A DNA stretch of 64,000 bases, taken from contig CAXXXD010000004.1 in NCBI GenBank assembly GCA_963663385.2, positions 1,120,001 to 1,184,000 on the forward strand, read 5' to 3'. Of the stretch, positions 10,719 to 20,030 are shown one piece after another. A program made the translations under genes and the position numbers. The notes beneath the pieces were generated by a model that was not told the DNA's origin, did no database searches, and was given only the letters and a program-made list of their open reading frames with translations. The stretch comes from Oceanispirochaeta sp. (GTDB lineage Bacteria; Spirochaetota; Spirochaetia; DSM-2461). Each line of letters starts with the position of its first letter. The stretch's first letter is position 1.

Positions 10719-11074
10719 ATGATTTTACTCAGCTTTTAAAAAGGGGAACCGGGAGGGATTCGTCGTTGGGACTGCAGCAAAGGCAGCCGGATCAGACTTC
10801 TCTATTAATTATACATAGGAGAAATTCAAAGTAAAAAGGAATGGTGGGGGCATGAATACTGCGCAGCTACTGCCAGAACTCGTCATCCGCTTTATATCCG
10901 ATCGGAAAGGAAGAACTCATTTTTCTGCTTGATCCGGAATCAGTATTAAGGGCTTTTTGAATCGGATCTATCTCCTGAAGCCGGGCAGTCAGGCATAAAC
11001 TCTTCAATAAAACTTTCAAAAATTGCTCTGATGTCTTTATTTGTCTTTTATAGTCCATTATTGTCCATTTGCTA

Positions 11075-11103
11075 TTGATGGTTTATTCGAAAAATGGTAA
11101 GTT
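11075..11103 (+). promoter_or_regulatory. Candidate sigma70 promoter giving a leaderless or near-leaderless mRNA for the RGPP ORF
   Basis: TTGATG, 17 bp, TAAGTT with extended TG; ATG 11112 lies 8 nt after the -10 box and has no SD. Confidence 0.4.
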
Positions 11104-11111
11104 CATCCTGT

Positions 11112-11468
11112 ATGAAGAGGTTCTGTCTGTTTTTTACAGTGCTATTATTCTCTCTCTCGCTGATTGGTGAAGATCTGTTCTTCTCCGGTCCGGTTTTTTT
11201 TGCCGGATCAACGGACGTTTTCCTTTCCACAGACAACTCTGAGCTTCCCTCCGGAAATACCGATGCGGTTGAGCTTCTGCTGGAAGAGGAGGAGGAAGAG
11301 AGCGAGGAAGAGGCGGAACTCCACCGCGCTGCGGGTCCGCAGGCTTTTCCCCCTGTAGAATATCAACCACTTCAAAGATACGGCTGCAGCCGACTCCGGT
11401 ACCTGCAGACTCTGTTTACTCCCTTTGAACAGAACCCCATTCTTTCTTTAAGAGGACCCCCCTGCTGA
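11112..11468 (+). CDS. Exported/membrane-targeted leader protein with acidic tract and C-terminal RGPP (candidate ribosome-arrest peptide)
   Basis: MKRFCLFFTVLLFSLSLIG signal-like N-terminus, LEEEEEESEEEAE tract, ends ILSLRGPPC-stop. Confidence 0.65.
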   Translation: MKRFCLFFTVLLFSLSLIGEDLFFSGPVFFAGSTDVFLSTDNSELPSGNTDAVELLLEEEEEESEEEAELHRAAGPQAFPPVEYQPLQRYGCSRLRYLQTLFTPFEQNPILSLRGPPC

Positions 11469-11509
11469 TTCCTTTCCTGACAGACTGATAAAAATAACGA
11501 AAAGGAATC
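11467..11509 (+). promoter_or_regulatory. Anti-SD stem occluding the RBS of the CBS gene
   Basis: GATTCCTTT (11467-11475) is the exact reverse complement of AAAGGAATC (11501-11509), which contains the AAGGA SD upstream of ATG 11514. Confidence 0.6.
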
Positions 11510-11513
11510 TTAA

Positions 11514-11972
11514 ATGAAAAATATATCTCTCGCCGAATTGCTGGATCAACGGGATATCCCTGTGTTCAATGAACAGGCCAGCCTGGAAGACCTTATTATG
11601 TATGACAGGGAACAGAGCTGCTGTTCTCACTACTATTTCACAAATAGGGAAGGGGTTCTGACCGGTATTCTCAGTAAACAGAAAATACTGGAGTTTTTAA
11701 GCTCCCTGTTCTTTCTGGTGGACAAAAACCAGGAAGACCGGCTGGCTGAGACCCTTGCCACAGTAAAAGTCCGTCCTCTTATGGATACTCATGTCCCTTC
11801 CCTGCGTTTAAATCAGAGCCTGCCCCAGGGAGTGGAAACCCTGCTCCTTTCCGGTTACAGCGCCCTGCCGGTTCTGGATGACAAACGGAGGCTGATAGGG
11901 GAGGTCTCCCGGGATTCCCTGCTGGGTATCATTCCCCTGAGACAGCGGGAGGTTCGTTATGCAGTTTCGTAA
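11514..11972 (+). CDS. CBS-domain protein
   Basis: GVLTGILS and ALPVLDDKRRLIGEVS CBS-type motifs. Confidence 0.75.
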   Translation: MKNISLAELLDQRDIPVFNEQASLEDLIMYDREQSCCSHYYFTNREGVLTGILSKQKILEFLSSLFFLVDKNQEDRLAETLATVKVRPLMDTHVPSLRLNQSLPQGVETLLLSGYSALPVLDDKRRLIGEVSRDSLLGIIPLRQREVRYAVS

Positions 11973-16179: not shown

Positions 16180-16851
16180 ATGAGTATGAAGGCATCCATT
16201 CAGGGGAATCCGTCTTTCAGCCATGTGCATATCGATCTGGATCCAGGTGAGAGCATTACCGCAGAAAGCGGCGCCATGCAGTCCATGGCAGCCCGGCTGG
16301 ATATGAAAGCCGTATCAAACGGCGGGTTTTTTTCCGCTCTGGGAAAGAAAATCTTCGGAGGCGAATCCTATTTTGTCAATCAGTTCACCAATAGGGGCAG
16401 CGCCCCCATGCGCGTTACCATCTCCCAGGATGTTCCCGGAGAAATCCGGGCGCTGAAACTGGACGGTACTCGGGATATCTGCCTTCAGAAAGGCTCCTAC
16501 CTGGCCCATTCGGGGGATATAAAACTCAAAGCATCCTGGGCCGGTTTTATCTCCTGGTTCTCAGGGGAGGGCCTTGTCAAACTGAAGGCATCAGGGAACG
16601 GTACCCTCTGGTTCGGCGCCTACGGCGGAATTATTGAAAGAAGAGTGGAGGGGAGTCTTAAAGTGGACGACGGCCACCTGGTTGCCTATGATCCCTCTCT
16701 GAAACTGAAAGTCGCCCTGGCGGGGGGATTGTTCTCCAGTTTCTTCGGAGGCGAGGGATTCGTTACGAAAGTCAGGGGCAGCGGTACGGTTTATATACAG
16801 ACCCGCAGTCTGAGGGGCCTGGCATCCTGGCTGAATCCCAAATTCCGGTAG
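16180..16851 (+). CDS. AIM24 / TIGR00266 family protein, paralogue 1
   Basis: LDPGESITAESGAM, GGESYFVN, VDDGHLVAYD, GGEGFV..GSGTVYIQTR. Confidence 0.85.
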   Translation: MSMKASIQGNPSFSHVHIDLDPGESITAESGAMQSMAARLDMKAVSNGGFFSALGKKIFGGESYFVNQFTNRGSAPMRVTISQDVPGEIRALKLDGTRDICLQKGSYLAHSGDIKLKASWAGFISWFSGEGLVKLKASGNGTLWFGAYGGIIERRVEGSLKVDDGHLVAYDPSLKLKVALAGGLFSSFFGGEGFVTKVRGSGTVYIQTRSLRGLASWLNPKFR

Positions 16852-16866
16852 AGAAAGGAGAGAATT

Positions 16867-17565
16867 ATGCAGATTGAAGTTATAAACCGCCCGGCCAATA
16901 CGGCAGCCAAAGTTCTTCTGGAACCTTCCGAAACCTTTACGGCCGAGGGGGGCGCCATGATTGCCATGTCCGGCGATATGAATCTGGTTACCAGCGTCAA
17001 CAAAAACGAAAAAAGCAAAGGCCGTAAGCTGCTGAAAGGCCTGGCCCGGACGCTGGGGGGAGAAGGGCTCTTTTTGAACCATTTTACAGCCGGCGTGAAC
17101 GGCGGGGATGTCTTTCTGGCCCCTTCCCTTCCCGGGGACCTTGCGGTTATCGAGCTGGACGGCAGCCGGGCCGTCAAAGTGCAGAACGGTTCATTCATGG
17201 CCTATGAAAACGGGGTGAATATGAATATCAGCTGGGAGGGATTCAAGAATGTTTTTTCCGGCGAAAACATGATCTGGCTGGAGATGTCCGGCAGGGGAAA
17301 GGTCCTGATAAATGCGTTCGGGATGATCTACCCGGTTAAAGTGGATGGTGAGTATATTGTGGATACCGGCAATATCGCCGCTTTTGATGAGACCCTGGAG
17401 TTTAAAATCTCCAAAGCGGGAAAGAGTCTTTTCTCCTCTATTATGGGAGGAGAAGGGCTGGTCTGCCGCTTTAAGGGTCGGGGAACCGTCTGGTGTCAGA
17501 CCCATGCAGACAGGGCTTTCGGTACAAAACTGACCCCTCTGCTCACCCCGAAACAGGATAACTAA
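16867..17565 (+). CDS. AIM24 / TIGR00266 family protein, paralogue 2
   Basis: AEGGAMIAM, GGEGLFLN, VDTGNIAAFD, GGEGLVCRFKGRGTVWCQT. Confidence 0.85.
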   Translation: MQIEVINRPANTAAKVLLEPSETFTAEGGAMIAMSGDMNLVTSVNKNEKSKGRKLLKGLARTLGGEGLFLNHFTAGVNGGDVFLAPSLPGDLAVIELDGSRAVKVQNGSFMAYENGVNMNISWEGFKNVFSGENMIWLEMSGRGKVLINAFGMIYPVKVDGEYIVDTGNIAAFDETLEFKISKAGKSLFSSIMGGEGLVCRFKGRGTVWCQTHADRAFGTKLTPLLTPKQDN

Positions 17566-17575
17566 GGAAGGAAAA

Positions 17576-18262
17576 ATGCAGGAAAATAGATCTGACTATA
17601 AATATGATATCGCCTCCGCACCGGATTTCGGGATGGTGAATATTACCGTGCCACAGGGAAAAACCCTCAAGGCCGAAGCTTCGGCCATGGCCTATATGGA
17701 TTCCACCCTTAAAATGAAAACAAAAATGAAGGGCGGCCTGAAAAGGGCCCTGACGGGGGAGAAGCTTTTTATTAATGAGTTTACAGCAGATGCCGGGGAT
17801 GCAGATATAGGTATAGCCCCGGGATGCCCCGGAGATATCGGCCACCTCTACCTGGAGAACGACACGGTTTTTCTGCAGAGTTCCTCCTACCTGGCTTCCT
17901 CTCCGGATCTGGAAACGGGAATCGATTTTCAGGGATTCAAGGGGTTCTTTTCGGGAGAGAAGATTTTTATGATCCGCTGCAGCGGGACGGGAGACCTCTG
18001 GTTCAATACATTCGGCGGGCTGATAGCCATAGATGTCCGGGATAACTATGTGGTGGACACCGGTTACATTGTGGGCTTTACGGAGGGCCTCAGCTACGAT
18101 GTTCGTCCCGTGGCCGGGATGAAGAGCCTGTTTTTTTCCGGAGAGGGGCTGGTCTGCCGCTTTTCGGGAGAAGGAACCGTCTGGATTCAGACCAGGCAGT
18201 CCCCCGCCTTTGTGAGCTGGGCGGACGCCTTCCGGCGGGTTGAGAAAAAGAAGAAGGATTAG
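17576..18262 (+). CDS. AIM24 / TIGR00266 family protein, paralogue 3
   Basis: AEASAMAYM, GEKLFINEF, VDTGYIVGF, SGEGLVCRFSGEGTVWIQTR. Confidence 0.85.
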   Translation: MQENRSDYKYDIASAPDFGMVNITVPQGKTLKAEASAMAYMDSTLKMKTKMKGGLKRALTGEKLFINEFTADAGDADIGIAPGCPGDIGHLYLENDTVFLQSSSYLASSPDLETGIDFQGFKGFFSGEKIFMIRCSGTGDLWFNTFGGLIAIDVRDNYVVDTGYIVGFTEGLSYDVRPVAGMKSLFFSGEGLVCRFSGEGTVWIQTRQSPAFVSWADAFRRVEKKKKD

Positions 18263-18354: not shown

Positions 18355-18561
18355 ATGAAAGTTATGGATAAAACACAGTTACATCCCCAGTTTTTAATGA
18401 ATGAACAGGGTAAAAAAACTTCTGTCCTTCTTCCCGTTGAGGAGTTTTATGAACTTCTTGAAGATCTGGAAGATCTGGCTGTTTGTGCTGAGCGAAGAAA
18501 TGAGCCGACAATTCCCATGGAAGAGGTTATTAAAGAGTTAGGTCTTGAAGACCGTGTATAA
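18355..18561 (+). CDS. Small acidic antitoxin of a type II TA pair
   Basis: GKKTSVLLPVEEFYELLEDLED..EPTIPMEEVIKELGL; overlaps the downstream RelE gene. Confidence 0.75.
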   Translation: MKVMDKTQLHPQFLMNEQGKKTSVLLPVEEFYELLEDLEDLAVCAERRNEPTIPMEEVIKELGLEDRV

Positions 18562-18808
18562 AATTGAATTCAAAAAATCAGCCTTGAAAGAGTTGAAAAA
18601 GCTTCCCCGGAAGGAACAAATTTCAATTTTATCAGCGATTAAAAAACTGGCGGAGAATCCCATACCTGTGGGATACAAGAAAATGGTCGGGTCAGAATCC
18701 ACGTACAGAATCAGGGTTGGTAATTATAGAATCATTTACAATATCTACAAGAAAGAACTCTTTATAGAAATTATACGGGTCGGCCATAGAAAAGATATAT
18801 ATCGCTGA
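18554..18808 (+). CDS. RelE/ParE family toxin
   Basis: YKIEFKKSALKELKKL, YRIRVGNYRIIY, IRVGHRKDIYR; GTG start. Confidence 0.9.
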   Translation: MYKIEFKKSALKELKKLPRKEQISILSAIKKLAENPIPVGYKKMVGSESTYRIRVGNYRIIYNIYKKELFIEIIRVGHRKDIYR

Positions 18809-18976: not shown

Positions 18977-19243
18977 CTATGCTAATATAACCTGCAGTAG
19001 AATAACCATTCCCATCACTAAAGCCATCATTATGAAAATAGCCCAAAATTGATTATTGAAACACTTTCTCTGAAAATAAGGATAAAGTGTCCAAATACAA
19101 AGAAAAAATAATGGTATTCCAAGTAAAGTAGTTGGAAGTAAGTTGTATCTTTCCCTCATGAAGCTAAAAAAAGGTTCTAAGTGAGAAATTAACTTATCAA
19201 TGTAGAATCTCTTTGTTAAAAATCTAGGTAAAAAATCACTCAT
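18977..19243 (-). CDS. Small two-TM protein, candidate Rhs immunity protein
   Basis: 88 aa, two hydrophobic helices, ATG overlaps the Rhs stop, AT-rich. Confidence 0.55.
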   Translation of the reverse strand: MSDFLPRFLTKRFYIDKLISHLEPFFSFMRERYNLLPTTLLGIPLFFLCIWTLYPYFQRKCFNNQFWAIFIMMALVMGMVILLQVILA

Positions 19244-20030
19244 TATCTGTTTCTTCTTGCTCTTGATCTTCTTCTGGCTCTGGTTCGTTAACCTGGCTCT
19301 TGCCAACAAGTGATCCAACTATACTTGCTACTTTTAAAATAAAACTTGATCTAACAGTTGAAGAAGTTCCAGACTTTGTTGATACAAATTGACCTCTACC
19401 TGGATTTATCTGCTTGTGAAATCTCATTGATCCTGTATTAAAAGAGGGAAGAGTTTTTTTCGCTATAACATCGGCAGCAAATGAACCCATACTGGCAGTC
19501 GTATCTGCCGATAACTCGCCTTCGATGATATCAGCACCTGCATTCAATAAAAGACTTGCACCATCAGCCATTAATGCTGCTGTTGCTGCTGTTCCCGCAC
19601 CAGGAAGATTCCCCGTTATGGCTAAGCCTACAGTTGAGTAATTTGCAACATCTCCTGCTATTGAAGAGGCACTGGCAGTATCTCTCAAAAACTCTACAGA
19701 AGCTCCTTTCCCAGCTTGAGTAAGATCTTCTTTAGCCTTCTCGTTACCACTTGCAGCTTTAATAATCGTAGCAGATGCACTTCTTGAATGATTTGCGTAT
19801 AGACCAACTAAATCTTTTATTGAAGGCATTGTCCACATCCCAGTGGGATCGATGAATTTTTGAGGATTGTTTGAAACATAGATAAACCAGTTTTGGCCAT
19901 CCCGAGCCGGGTCTTCAGATATGAATCTCCCGGTTCCGGCATCATACCACCTGGCATTGTAGTAGTATAACCCGGTGTCTTCATCGAGATCCTTTCCGGT
20001 ATACTTCAAATCAGGATAGTTTCGTATCAC
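19236..20030 (-). CDS. Orphan Rhs module: short RHS core end plus about 200-aa C-terminal toxin domain
   Basis: KYTGKDLDEDTGLYYYNARWYDAGTGRFISEDP..YVSNNPQKFIDPTG; no YD-repeat body; AT-rich tip. Confidence 0.85.
   Translation of the reverse strand: MIRNYPDLKYTGKDLDEDTGLYYYNARWYDAGTGRFISEDPARDGQNWFIYVSNNPQKFIDPTGMWTMPSIKDLVGLYANHSRSASATIIKAASGNEKAKEDLTQAGKGASVEFLRDTASASSIAGDVANYSTVGLAITGNLPGAGTAATAALMADGASLLLNAGADIIEGELSADTTASMGSFAADVIAKKTLPSFNTGSMRFHKQINPGRGQFVSTKSGTSSTVRSSFILKVASIVGSLVGKSQVNEPEPEEDQEQEETDNE

Follow-up and report, generated by a model that had tools for sequence, protein, structure and literature searches.

A conserved candidate RGPP arrest leader of a known kind precedes a CBS-protein and transporter operon in Oceanispirochaeta

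Leader peptides that carry RAPP or RGPP are established upstream of diverse downstream genes (Fujiwara et al. 2025, PMC12992588). According to the available portions of that paper, RGPP gave the most stable arrest and 7/7 Streptomyces leaders tested stalled, and a RAPP-like motif alone does not guarantee stalling. The same portions list "CBS domain-containing protein" as the twelfth downstream class (266 RAPP versus 94 AAPP uORFs, 11-fold) and place "cation:proton antiporter" among the top 30 enriched classes, with rows for NhaD and SulP; the nature of the releasing force is posed there as an open question for RAPP/RGPP leaders of non-Sec genes. In the RQH family, reported with R, Q and H as first residues, the uDF_RQH_Enterobacterales RGPP leader was shown to open a stem that masks the SD and so to induce the gene behind it (Fujiwara et al. 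2024, PMC10987492, available in part). CruR (DUF2946) of Bordetella pertussis is a RAPP leader that controls a non-Sec transport gene (PMC9426467, likewise available in part); CruR and two Streptomyces leaders have metal ligands matching their downstream genes, and copper is proposed to alter folding or pull in CruR (PMC12992588). We also drew on the LudP preprint (10.64898/2026.10.26.761930) and on 10.1101/2021.12.23.474019, both available in part.

The window analyzed here, a 64,000-nt stretch of an Oceanispirochaeta genome, holds a leader with the same layout as RQH, ApdA, ApdP and SecM (Table 1). We regard it as a candidate arrest-leader switch that is conserved and belongs to a known kind; its target class is already catalogued. 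By its anatomy it would work like SecM and the RQH leaders. It is not a Sec monitor by definition, with predicted targets that are CBS and ion-transport genes, whereas the RQH family is defined, in the text available, upstream of secA, secDF or yidC. Nor is it a CruR: the window leader and six homologs have no DUF2946 match, no Cys/His ligands are conserved, and an acidic patch is present instead. With the uORF peptides of Fujiwara et al. 2025, as described in the accessible part, it shares small size (<300 aa), RAPP/RGPP near the C-terminus, conservation of the motif in homologs, a same-strand downstream gene and a spacer of >30 residues (~97 here), and its start is predicted to be signal-like. 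Row 792 of the source data of that paper is identical to the leader of locus L037, a homolog of the window leader, and the window leader itself may be listed in further supplementary lists. The initial annotation had placed the examples it knew before secretion or metal genes, which is out of date since that study, and had proposed an undescribed circuit, which was overstated given the catalogued CBS and antiporter classes and the homolog in row 792. The main text of PMC12992588 does not mention CBS, antiporters, an SD stem, a leaderless start, an acidic patch or KAPP, and we found no spirochaete or CBS-linked member among the assayed peptides in its available portions. What our analysis adds, all from sequence comparison, is an apparently fixed acidic patch, a KAPP variant that purifying selection maintains, and a phased repeat shared with the antiporter operon of the host genome.

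Table 1. Features of the leader and its operon in the window (coordinates count from the first nucleotide of the window)
Feature	Position	Strand	Remarks
Four direct repeats, 10-bp spacing, TGTC/AGTC core; candidate transcription-factor site	11030..11069	+	phased in relatives
Inferred sigma-70-type promoter TTGATG-17-TAAGTT	11075..11103	+	start of transcription would fall on or beside the ATG
Leader ORF, candidate arrest peptide, 118 aa	11112..11468	+	ATG 11112-11114, TGA 11466-11468
Predicted Sec signal peptide: basic n-region, hydrophobic h-region	11112..11168	+	cleavage site by eye
Acidic patch EEEEEESEEEAE, residues 58-69	11283..11318	+	last acid 47 residues before the P-site Pro
RGPP motif	11451..11462	+	predicted P-site codon 11457-11459, A-site codon 11460-11462
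5′ arm (anti-SD) GATTCCTTT	11467..11475	+	overlaps the stop codon; exact reverse complement of the 3′ arm
3′ arm AAAGGAATC, containing AGGA, the CBS ribosome-binding site	11501..11509	+	AGGA 7 nt before ATG 11514
Small CBS-pair protein, 152 aa, predicted direct target	11514..11972	+	PF00571; weak CbpB similarity, far below cut-off
PTS-EIIA plus CBS protein, 298 aa	11959..12855	+	overlaps the end of the CBS gene; own GGGAGG site
CitMHS/ArsB/NhaD-superfamily transporter, 424 aa	12856..14130	+	starts directly after the preceding stop

The initial annotation had described a 118-aa ORF with a signal- or TM-like start, a poly-Glu run and RGPP one codon before the stop, and every one of these elements is present. 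The motif is encoded by AGA GGA CCC CCC, with a single Cys codon between it and the TGA, and an alternative in-frame ATG at 11094 would extend the peptide to 124 aa. The N-terminus MKRFCLFFTVLLFSLSLIG is basic and then hydrophobic (12-residue mean 2.63); hydrophobicity profiles, used here in place of a signal predictor, reach 2.3-2.8 at the start of 12/12 aligned leaders, with basic residues first. The peptide is probably exported and looks largely unstructured, and no Pfam or NCBIfam family matched it (Pfam was run on the window leader and six homologs). RGPP and RAPP are absent from the long ORFs of the host genome (0 observed versus 14.4 expected), and no other ATG-started small ORF in the genome combines a signal-like start with a RAPP-like motif at the C-terminus, so the motif exceeds chance. 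The 12 aligned leaders have 17-29% identity to that of the window, with only M1, one acidic (Glu) column and Pro-Pro invariant; no Cys or His column is conserved. Across relatives the Arg of the motif is written with 5 different codons and Pro with four, and dN/dS is 0.18-0.55 in the 6 measurable pairs of relatives, a seventh pair being saturated. At one close homolog (P0010, 75%) the end diverges after ILS and RGPP is gone by an apparent frameshift, through either assembly error or natural loss.

Relatives of the operon, which lie among spirochaetes, were sought in 61 genomes with the EIIA-CBS protein and in 38 genomes of the order with a CBS profile. Six of the seven close relatives (53-64% identity) have the leader, and the seventh, in genome G007, has neither leader nor CBS gene. 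Of 19 distant operons (24-29%) we extended 17, among which a motif scan detects a leader in 5 and none in 10, the other 2 being truncated at a contig end. The CBS profile gave 14 matches in 13/38 genomes with a leader directly upstream in 14/14, and 2 of these 14 leader-CBS units are followed by SulP. Scans of sequence collections added seven loci, six with a KAPP leader and one without leader and CBS gene; both close-group operons that lack the leader also lack the CBS gene. These counts, in which relatives are not independent samples, indicate that it is the small CBS gene that the leader accompanies, and not the transporter as such. Leader-linked operons also include a cation:proton antiporter-CBS gene, the CitMHS/ArsB-type transporter and SulP, and at L034 the leader precedes an HTH-type gene in place of CBS.

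Our 20-leader set holds 14 R[A/G]PP and 6 KAPP leaders and excludes L078, a KAPP locus with a deleted CBS gene and a broken transporter. All 20, which were found by synteny, keep the RGPP/RAPP motif (KAPP in those six). An alignment of 7 EIIA-CBS sequences recovered 12 loci, 6 of them already counted, and a genome-contig scan with a single CBS protein gave 281 pattern matches, none confirmed. A metagenome scan returned 8 loci, of which one (L065) is a true ortholog; the 7 weak ones were dropped, and the 3 inspected were unrelated genes with CBS-like matches. On a phylum sample of 401 genomes the CBS profile found, besides the host genome, only 2 weak matches, and the leader-linked CBS family looks narrow among the genomes searched. 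An atlas comparison gave no more than a lead, to unnamed Bacteroidota clusters (0.96) for which recognition fell short of the reliable level. Paralogous leader-CBS cassettes lie directly before SulP genes at L063 and L064, and SulP-like genes flank the operon at L033 and L037. At L103:1501-1860 (genome G008) a leader of the same design has a leaderless-type promoter and an acid centre that lies 53.6 residues ahead of its RAPP; the genes that follow it encode an ABC ATPase and permease and no ion transporter.

Downstream of the leader, the 424-aa transporter reaches the CitMHS and ArsB Pfam cut-offs, and no NCBIfam transporter model reaches its own (NhaD 65 versus 577 and 48.5 versus 80 bits), so the label "ion transporter" rests on family and context. 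The CBS / EIIA-CBS / ArsB-NhaD operon of the initial annotation stands for its CBS, EIIA-CBS and CitMHS/ArsB parts, whereas the NhaD assignment misses its cut-off. Only the CBS gene would be gated directly; EIIA-CBS has its own SD, so control of the whole operon is not automatic.

The perfect 9-base pairing proposed between 11467-11475 and 11501-11509, with the SD of the next gene in the 3′ arm, is exact. Taken alone, the window stem is not significant: its z-score is -0.12 for 11420-11540 and -1.8 for 11463-11530, where 11/200 shuffles are as good, and 6.1% of 164 background gene pairs in the genome pair as well. It is conservation across relatives that lifts stem and promoter above chance. 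At the 20 loci we paired the 24 nt from the A-site Pro codon with the 24 nt before the next start, and as background took 164 co-directional gene pairs of the host genome, with windows set from the stop codon and crude gene calls; duplexes of <=-9 kcal/mol occur at 17/20 leaders versus 9.1% of these background pairs. Mean pairing energy is -10.9 kcal/mol with a leader's own ribosome-binding site and -7.6 kcal/mol with swapped partners (0/100000 permutations), and the preference for the own partner recurs inside three clades (2/720, 50/40320 and 5/720). Duplexes are weak at two loci, and the gap from leader to next gene is 43-79 nt. Stems vary in sequence, length and register, and what is conserved is therefore partner-specific complementarity, not column-by-column covariation. 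Motif, signal-like start, leaderless promoter and own-partner stem all hold up across relatives, as the comparative checks proposed in the initial annotation for its arrest-leader and anti-SD reading required. Lack of conservation of RGPP and stem in orthologous loci had been named as grounds against its reading, and both are conserved.

A ribosome footprint spans -12 to +15 around the P-site codon. When this footprint was blocked and the cost of opening the SD recomputed, the cost fell by >1.5 kcal/mol in 15/20 loci (median 4.2), a count that used an L065 downstream start one base off (corrected for the duplex test). At the window it fell by 2.8, from 5.6 to 2.8 kcal/mol, and a second register retains -3.1 kcal/mol. 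There was little or no effect in 5/20 (L005, L034, L062, L063 and L065). The window leader is thus predicted to have the SecM-type arrangement of an SD-masking stem with its 5′ arm under the stalled ribosome.

In 20/20 leaders a TTG(A/C) -35 box is found 35-37 nt upstream of the start codon, versus 2.4% of all ATGs genome-wide; the start codon is the first in-frame ATG in 13/20, and in the other 7, including the window, it was chosen by an MKK/MRK-type signal start, which is partly circular. A consensus promoter scan of the window did not list the inferred leader promoter. From the spacing between -35 box and start codon we infer that the leader mRNA is leaderless, and this geometry, kept in 20/20 leaders, favors the initial annotation's suggestion to that effect.

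The direct repeats precede the -35 box, phased at ~-81/-71/-61/-51 in the window and several relatives; they are absent at Sphaerochaetaceae-type loci. A matrix built from 9 relatives, with this locus excluded, was run over the genome and ranked the site at C2:1470247 first (35.1), the leader promoter second (31.6) and the next site at 26.6. The top site lies directly before the genome's EIIA and antiporter-CBS genes, which share one operon with the leader in L031 and L037, and this suggests a shared ion-transport regulon for the repeat-bearing operons. The region G000:C2:1470200-1472420, outside the window, is apparently the other half of the operon that is intact in L031 and L037. BldC-family (HTH_17) sites are likewise AT-rich head-to-tail repeats, and the optimized BldC site, on its other strand, contains ATTGTCC at 10-bp spacing and resembles the window repeats (PMC5859096, available in part); OmpR-type regulators bind such repeats too. 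An HTH_17-EIIA gene at G000:C4:709686-710387, followed by a regulator-like and then an aminotransferase-like gene (names by eye), is a candidate binder of the repeats, and HTH_17-EIIA genes are also present in related operons; we infer that their products may bind the repeats. At L048:4670-4890 in G007 the phased repeats and promoter are kept and the leader and CBS gene lost, with a strong SD directly before EIIA-CBS, which makes this locus a natural unregulated control.

In the 14/14 synteny-found Arg-type leaders, the centre of the acidic patch lies 49.8-57.0 residues before the P-site Pro (mean 53.1 +/- 2.3) and the last acid 44-53 residues before it; 14 profile-found leaders show the same spacing, which is circular and was not counted. 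Averaged over 12 leaders, charge is close to zero over the 45 residues nearest the P site and reaches -0.62 per residue at a distance of 50-54. The position of the patch has an sd of 2.3 relative to the P site and 3.1 relative to the N-terminus, and the spacing may reflect plain homology. Acids vary in number and order (4-10 per 12 residues), and net charge at the patch is -1 in the SulP-linked L063 and L064 and 0 to -1 in 5/6 KAPP leaders. The poly-Glu run that the initial annotation took as a linker is present, but its fixed distance from the stall site suggests that it may be a sensing part. By eye, in the supplementary rows of PMC12992588 that were available, many unrelated CBS-linked and some SulP-linked RAPP leaders are Asp/Glu-rich ~40-50 residues before the motif, and Actinomycete-like antiporter-linked RAPP leaders are mostly without such a patch.

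Voltage has been reported to pull acidic stretches through SecYEG and thereby release SecM arrest (Ismail et al. 2015, as summarized in the accessible part of the review PMC6028853), and basic and uncharged stretches also gave some release. Those reporters, which are laboratory constructs, likewise carry an acidic run upstream of an arrest site in an exported chain. It takes some 45 residues to reach from the PTC to the membrane site (PMC12002286, PMC7886326, both available in part). In the literature open to our searches we found no natural voltage-sensing leader and no assay of a CBS-linked one.

We propose the following chain of events. Translation would begin at the very 5′ end of the mRNA or right beside it, as promoter spacing suggests, and the predicted signal peptide would engage Sec. 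The ribosome would then stall with Pro116 in the P site, a step that we consider highly probable by analogy with RAPP/RGPP peptides; the register is borrowed from ApdA, ApdP and CruR. Its footprint (~11445-11472) is predicted to break 6/9 stem pairs, so that the CBS gene is likely translated, with the next two genes coupled or protected from polarity. Stall and unmasking together, the core that most readings share, are in our judgment probable. At the stall, ~45 residues from ribosome centre to membrane site would put the Glu run in or just across SecY. A strong inside-negative potential would pull on it, the leader would be finished, the stem would re-form and the operon would stay quiet; a weak potential would prolong the stall and turn the ion-transport genes on. 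This last step is the least certain. The whole chain, in which RGPP arrest unmasks the CBS ribosome-binding site and the acidic patch makes release voltage-dependent, is the reading we favor over any single rival, although it is somewhat less likely than not.

The placement of the patch would let it feel the voltage pull on acidic residues near SecY. The nascent chain would then act as a voltmeter, the potential pulling on the Glu run through SecY setting the dwell at RGPP and depolarization leading to translation of ion-transport genes, with CBS, EIIA-CBS, ArsB/NhaD-type, cation:proton antiporter and SulP genes as targets; this reading is possible, if doubtful. If the patch had already passed the pore at the stall there would be no pull, which would count against the voltage step. 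If voltage is the input, the gene switch would read membrane potential directly and feed back on ion transport; with an inert patch, the locus would remain a well-supported example of the CBS-linked class already catalogued. In either case a family with patch, motif and stem offers a concrete and cheap test of the force that releases RAPP/RGPP leaders before non-Sec genes.

The same stall and SD switch could instead respond to general Sec export capacity, as in SecM, ApdA and ApdP, with the acidic run as a soluble linker. The architecture, with its ~97-residue spacer, is the one described by criteria ii-iv of the Sec-monitor definition in the text available, the patch is near neutral in 5/6 KAPP leaders, and the ABC transporter at L103 is preceded by a leader of the same design. 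Yet the leader operons contain no sec gene, and a soluble linker leaves unexplained why charge is concentrated between 45 and 64 residues from the P site in a poorly conserved stretch that is otherwise near neutral; we think this input rather unlikely. Less probable again is that the patch, in the same switch, serves as an extramembrane binding site for cations or protons (Mg, Na, K or pH) and so alters folding or pull. The precedent would be CruR and the two Streptomyces leaders, whose ligands match their downstream genes in the text available, and in the present operons ion transporters follow the leader, together with CBS and EIIA regulators; however, acids that vary between 4 and 10 per 12 residues give no fixed ligand geometry, and neither His nor Cys is conserved.

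A constitutive, unregulated stall, which would set a basal level, protect the mRNA or tether it to the membrane for synthesis of the transporter close to SecY, seems to us quite improbable. RGPP being the strongest core in the available data, the absence of predicted switching in 5/20 loci, the many operons without a leader and a separate transcription-factor site that could supply regulation all fit such a stall, but partner-specific SD stems kept with different sequences in three clades point to an off state. Finally, an ordinary small secreted protein with a coincidental motif and stem would be in keeping with the non-significant window stem and the motif loss in P0010, but is very improbable against a motif kept in 20/20 synteny-found leaders while the rest diverges, its absence from long ORFs and partner-specific stems.

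Returning to a voltage-dependent release, a KAPP motif together with a neutralized patch would amount to a retuned switch, in which a weakened stall is matched by a weakened pull. (F/S)NKAPP occurs at seven loci in two families (L050, L065, L074, L075, L078, L080 and L082). Simple decay of these leaders was rejected for now, with dN/dS of 0.18-0.25 in 4 pairs indicating purifying selection. Both leader losses of the close group sit beside KAPP lineages in a tree that covers the close group only (12 rows, mostly of the distant group, were lost to a narrow motif filter). As far as the available text goes, Arg is irreplaceable in ApcA, ApdA and ApdP (PMC12992588), and natural QAPP and HAPP peptides stall (PMC10987492), so a further stalling variant is plausible for KAPP; these leaders may stall weakly or be in early decay. 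The word KAPP is absent from the main texts of PMC12992588 and PMC10987492, and a literature search for it returned only unrelated-looking papers. The branch probes the rule that Arg cannot be replaced. CBS genes downstream of KAPP leaders look less constrained than the leaders.

Farther along the window, three tandem similar ~225-aa genes at 16180-18262, which resemble the TIGR00266/AIM24 type, have counterparts directly after the operon in L049. Inspection by eye also picked out two small overlapping genes resembling a RelB/RelE-type toxin-antitoxin pair at 18355-18808, and an ORF with an RHS-repeat-core-like motif at its start at 19236-20030 (- strand).
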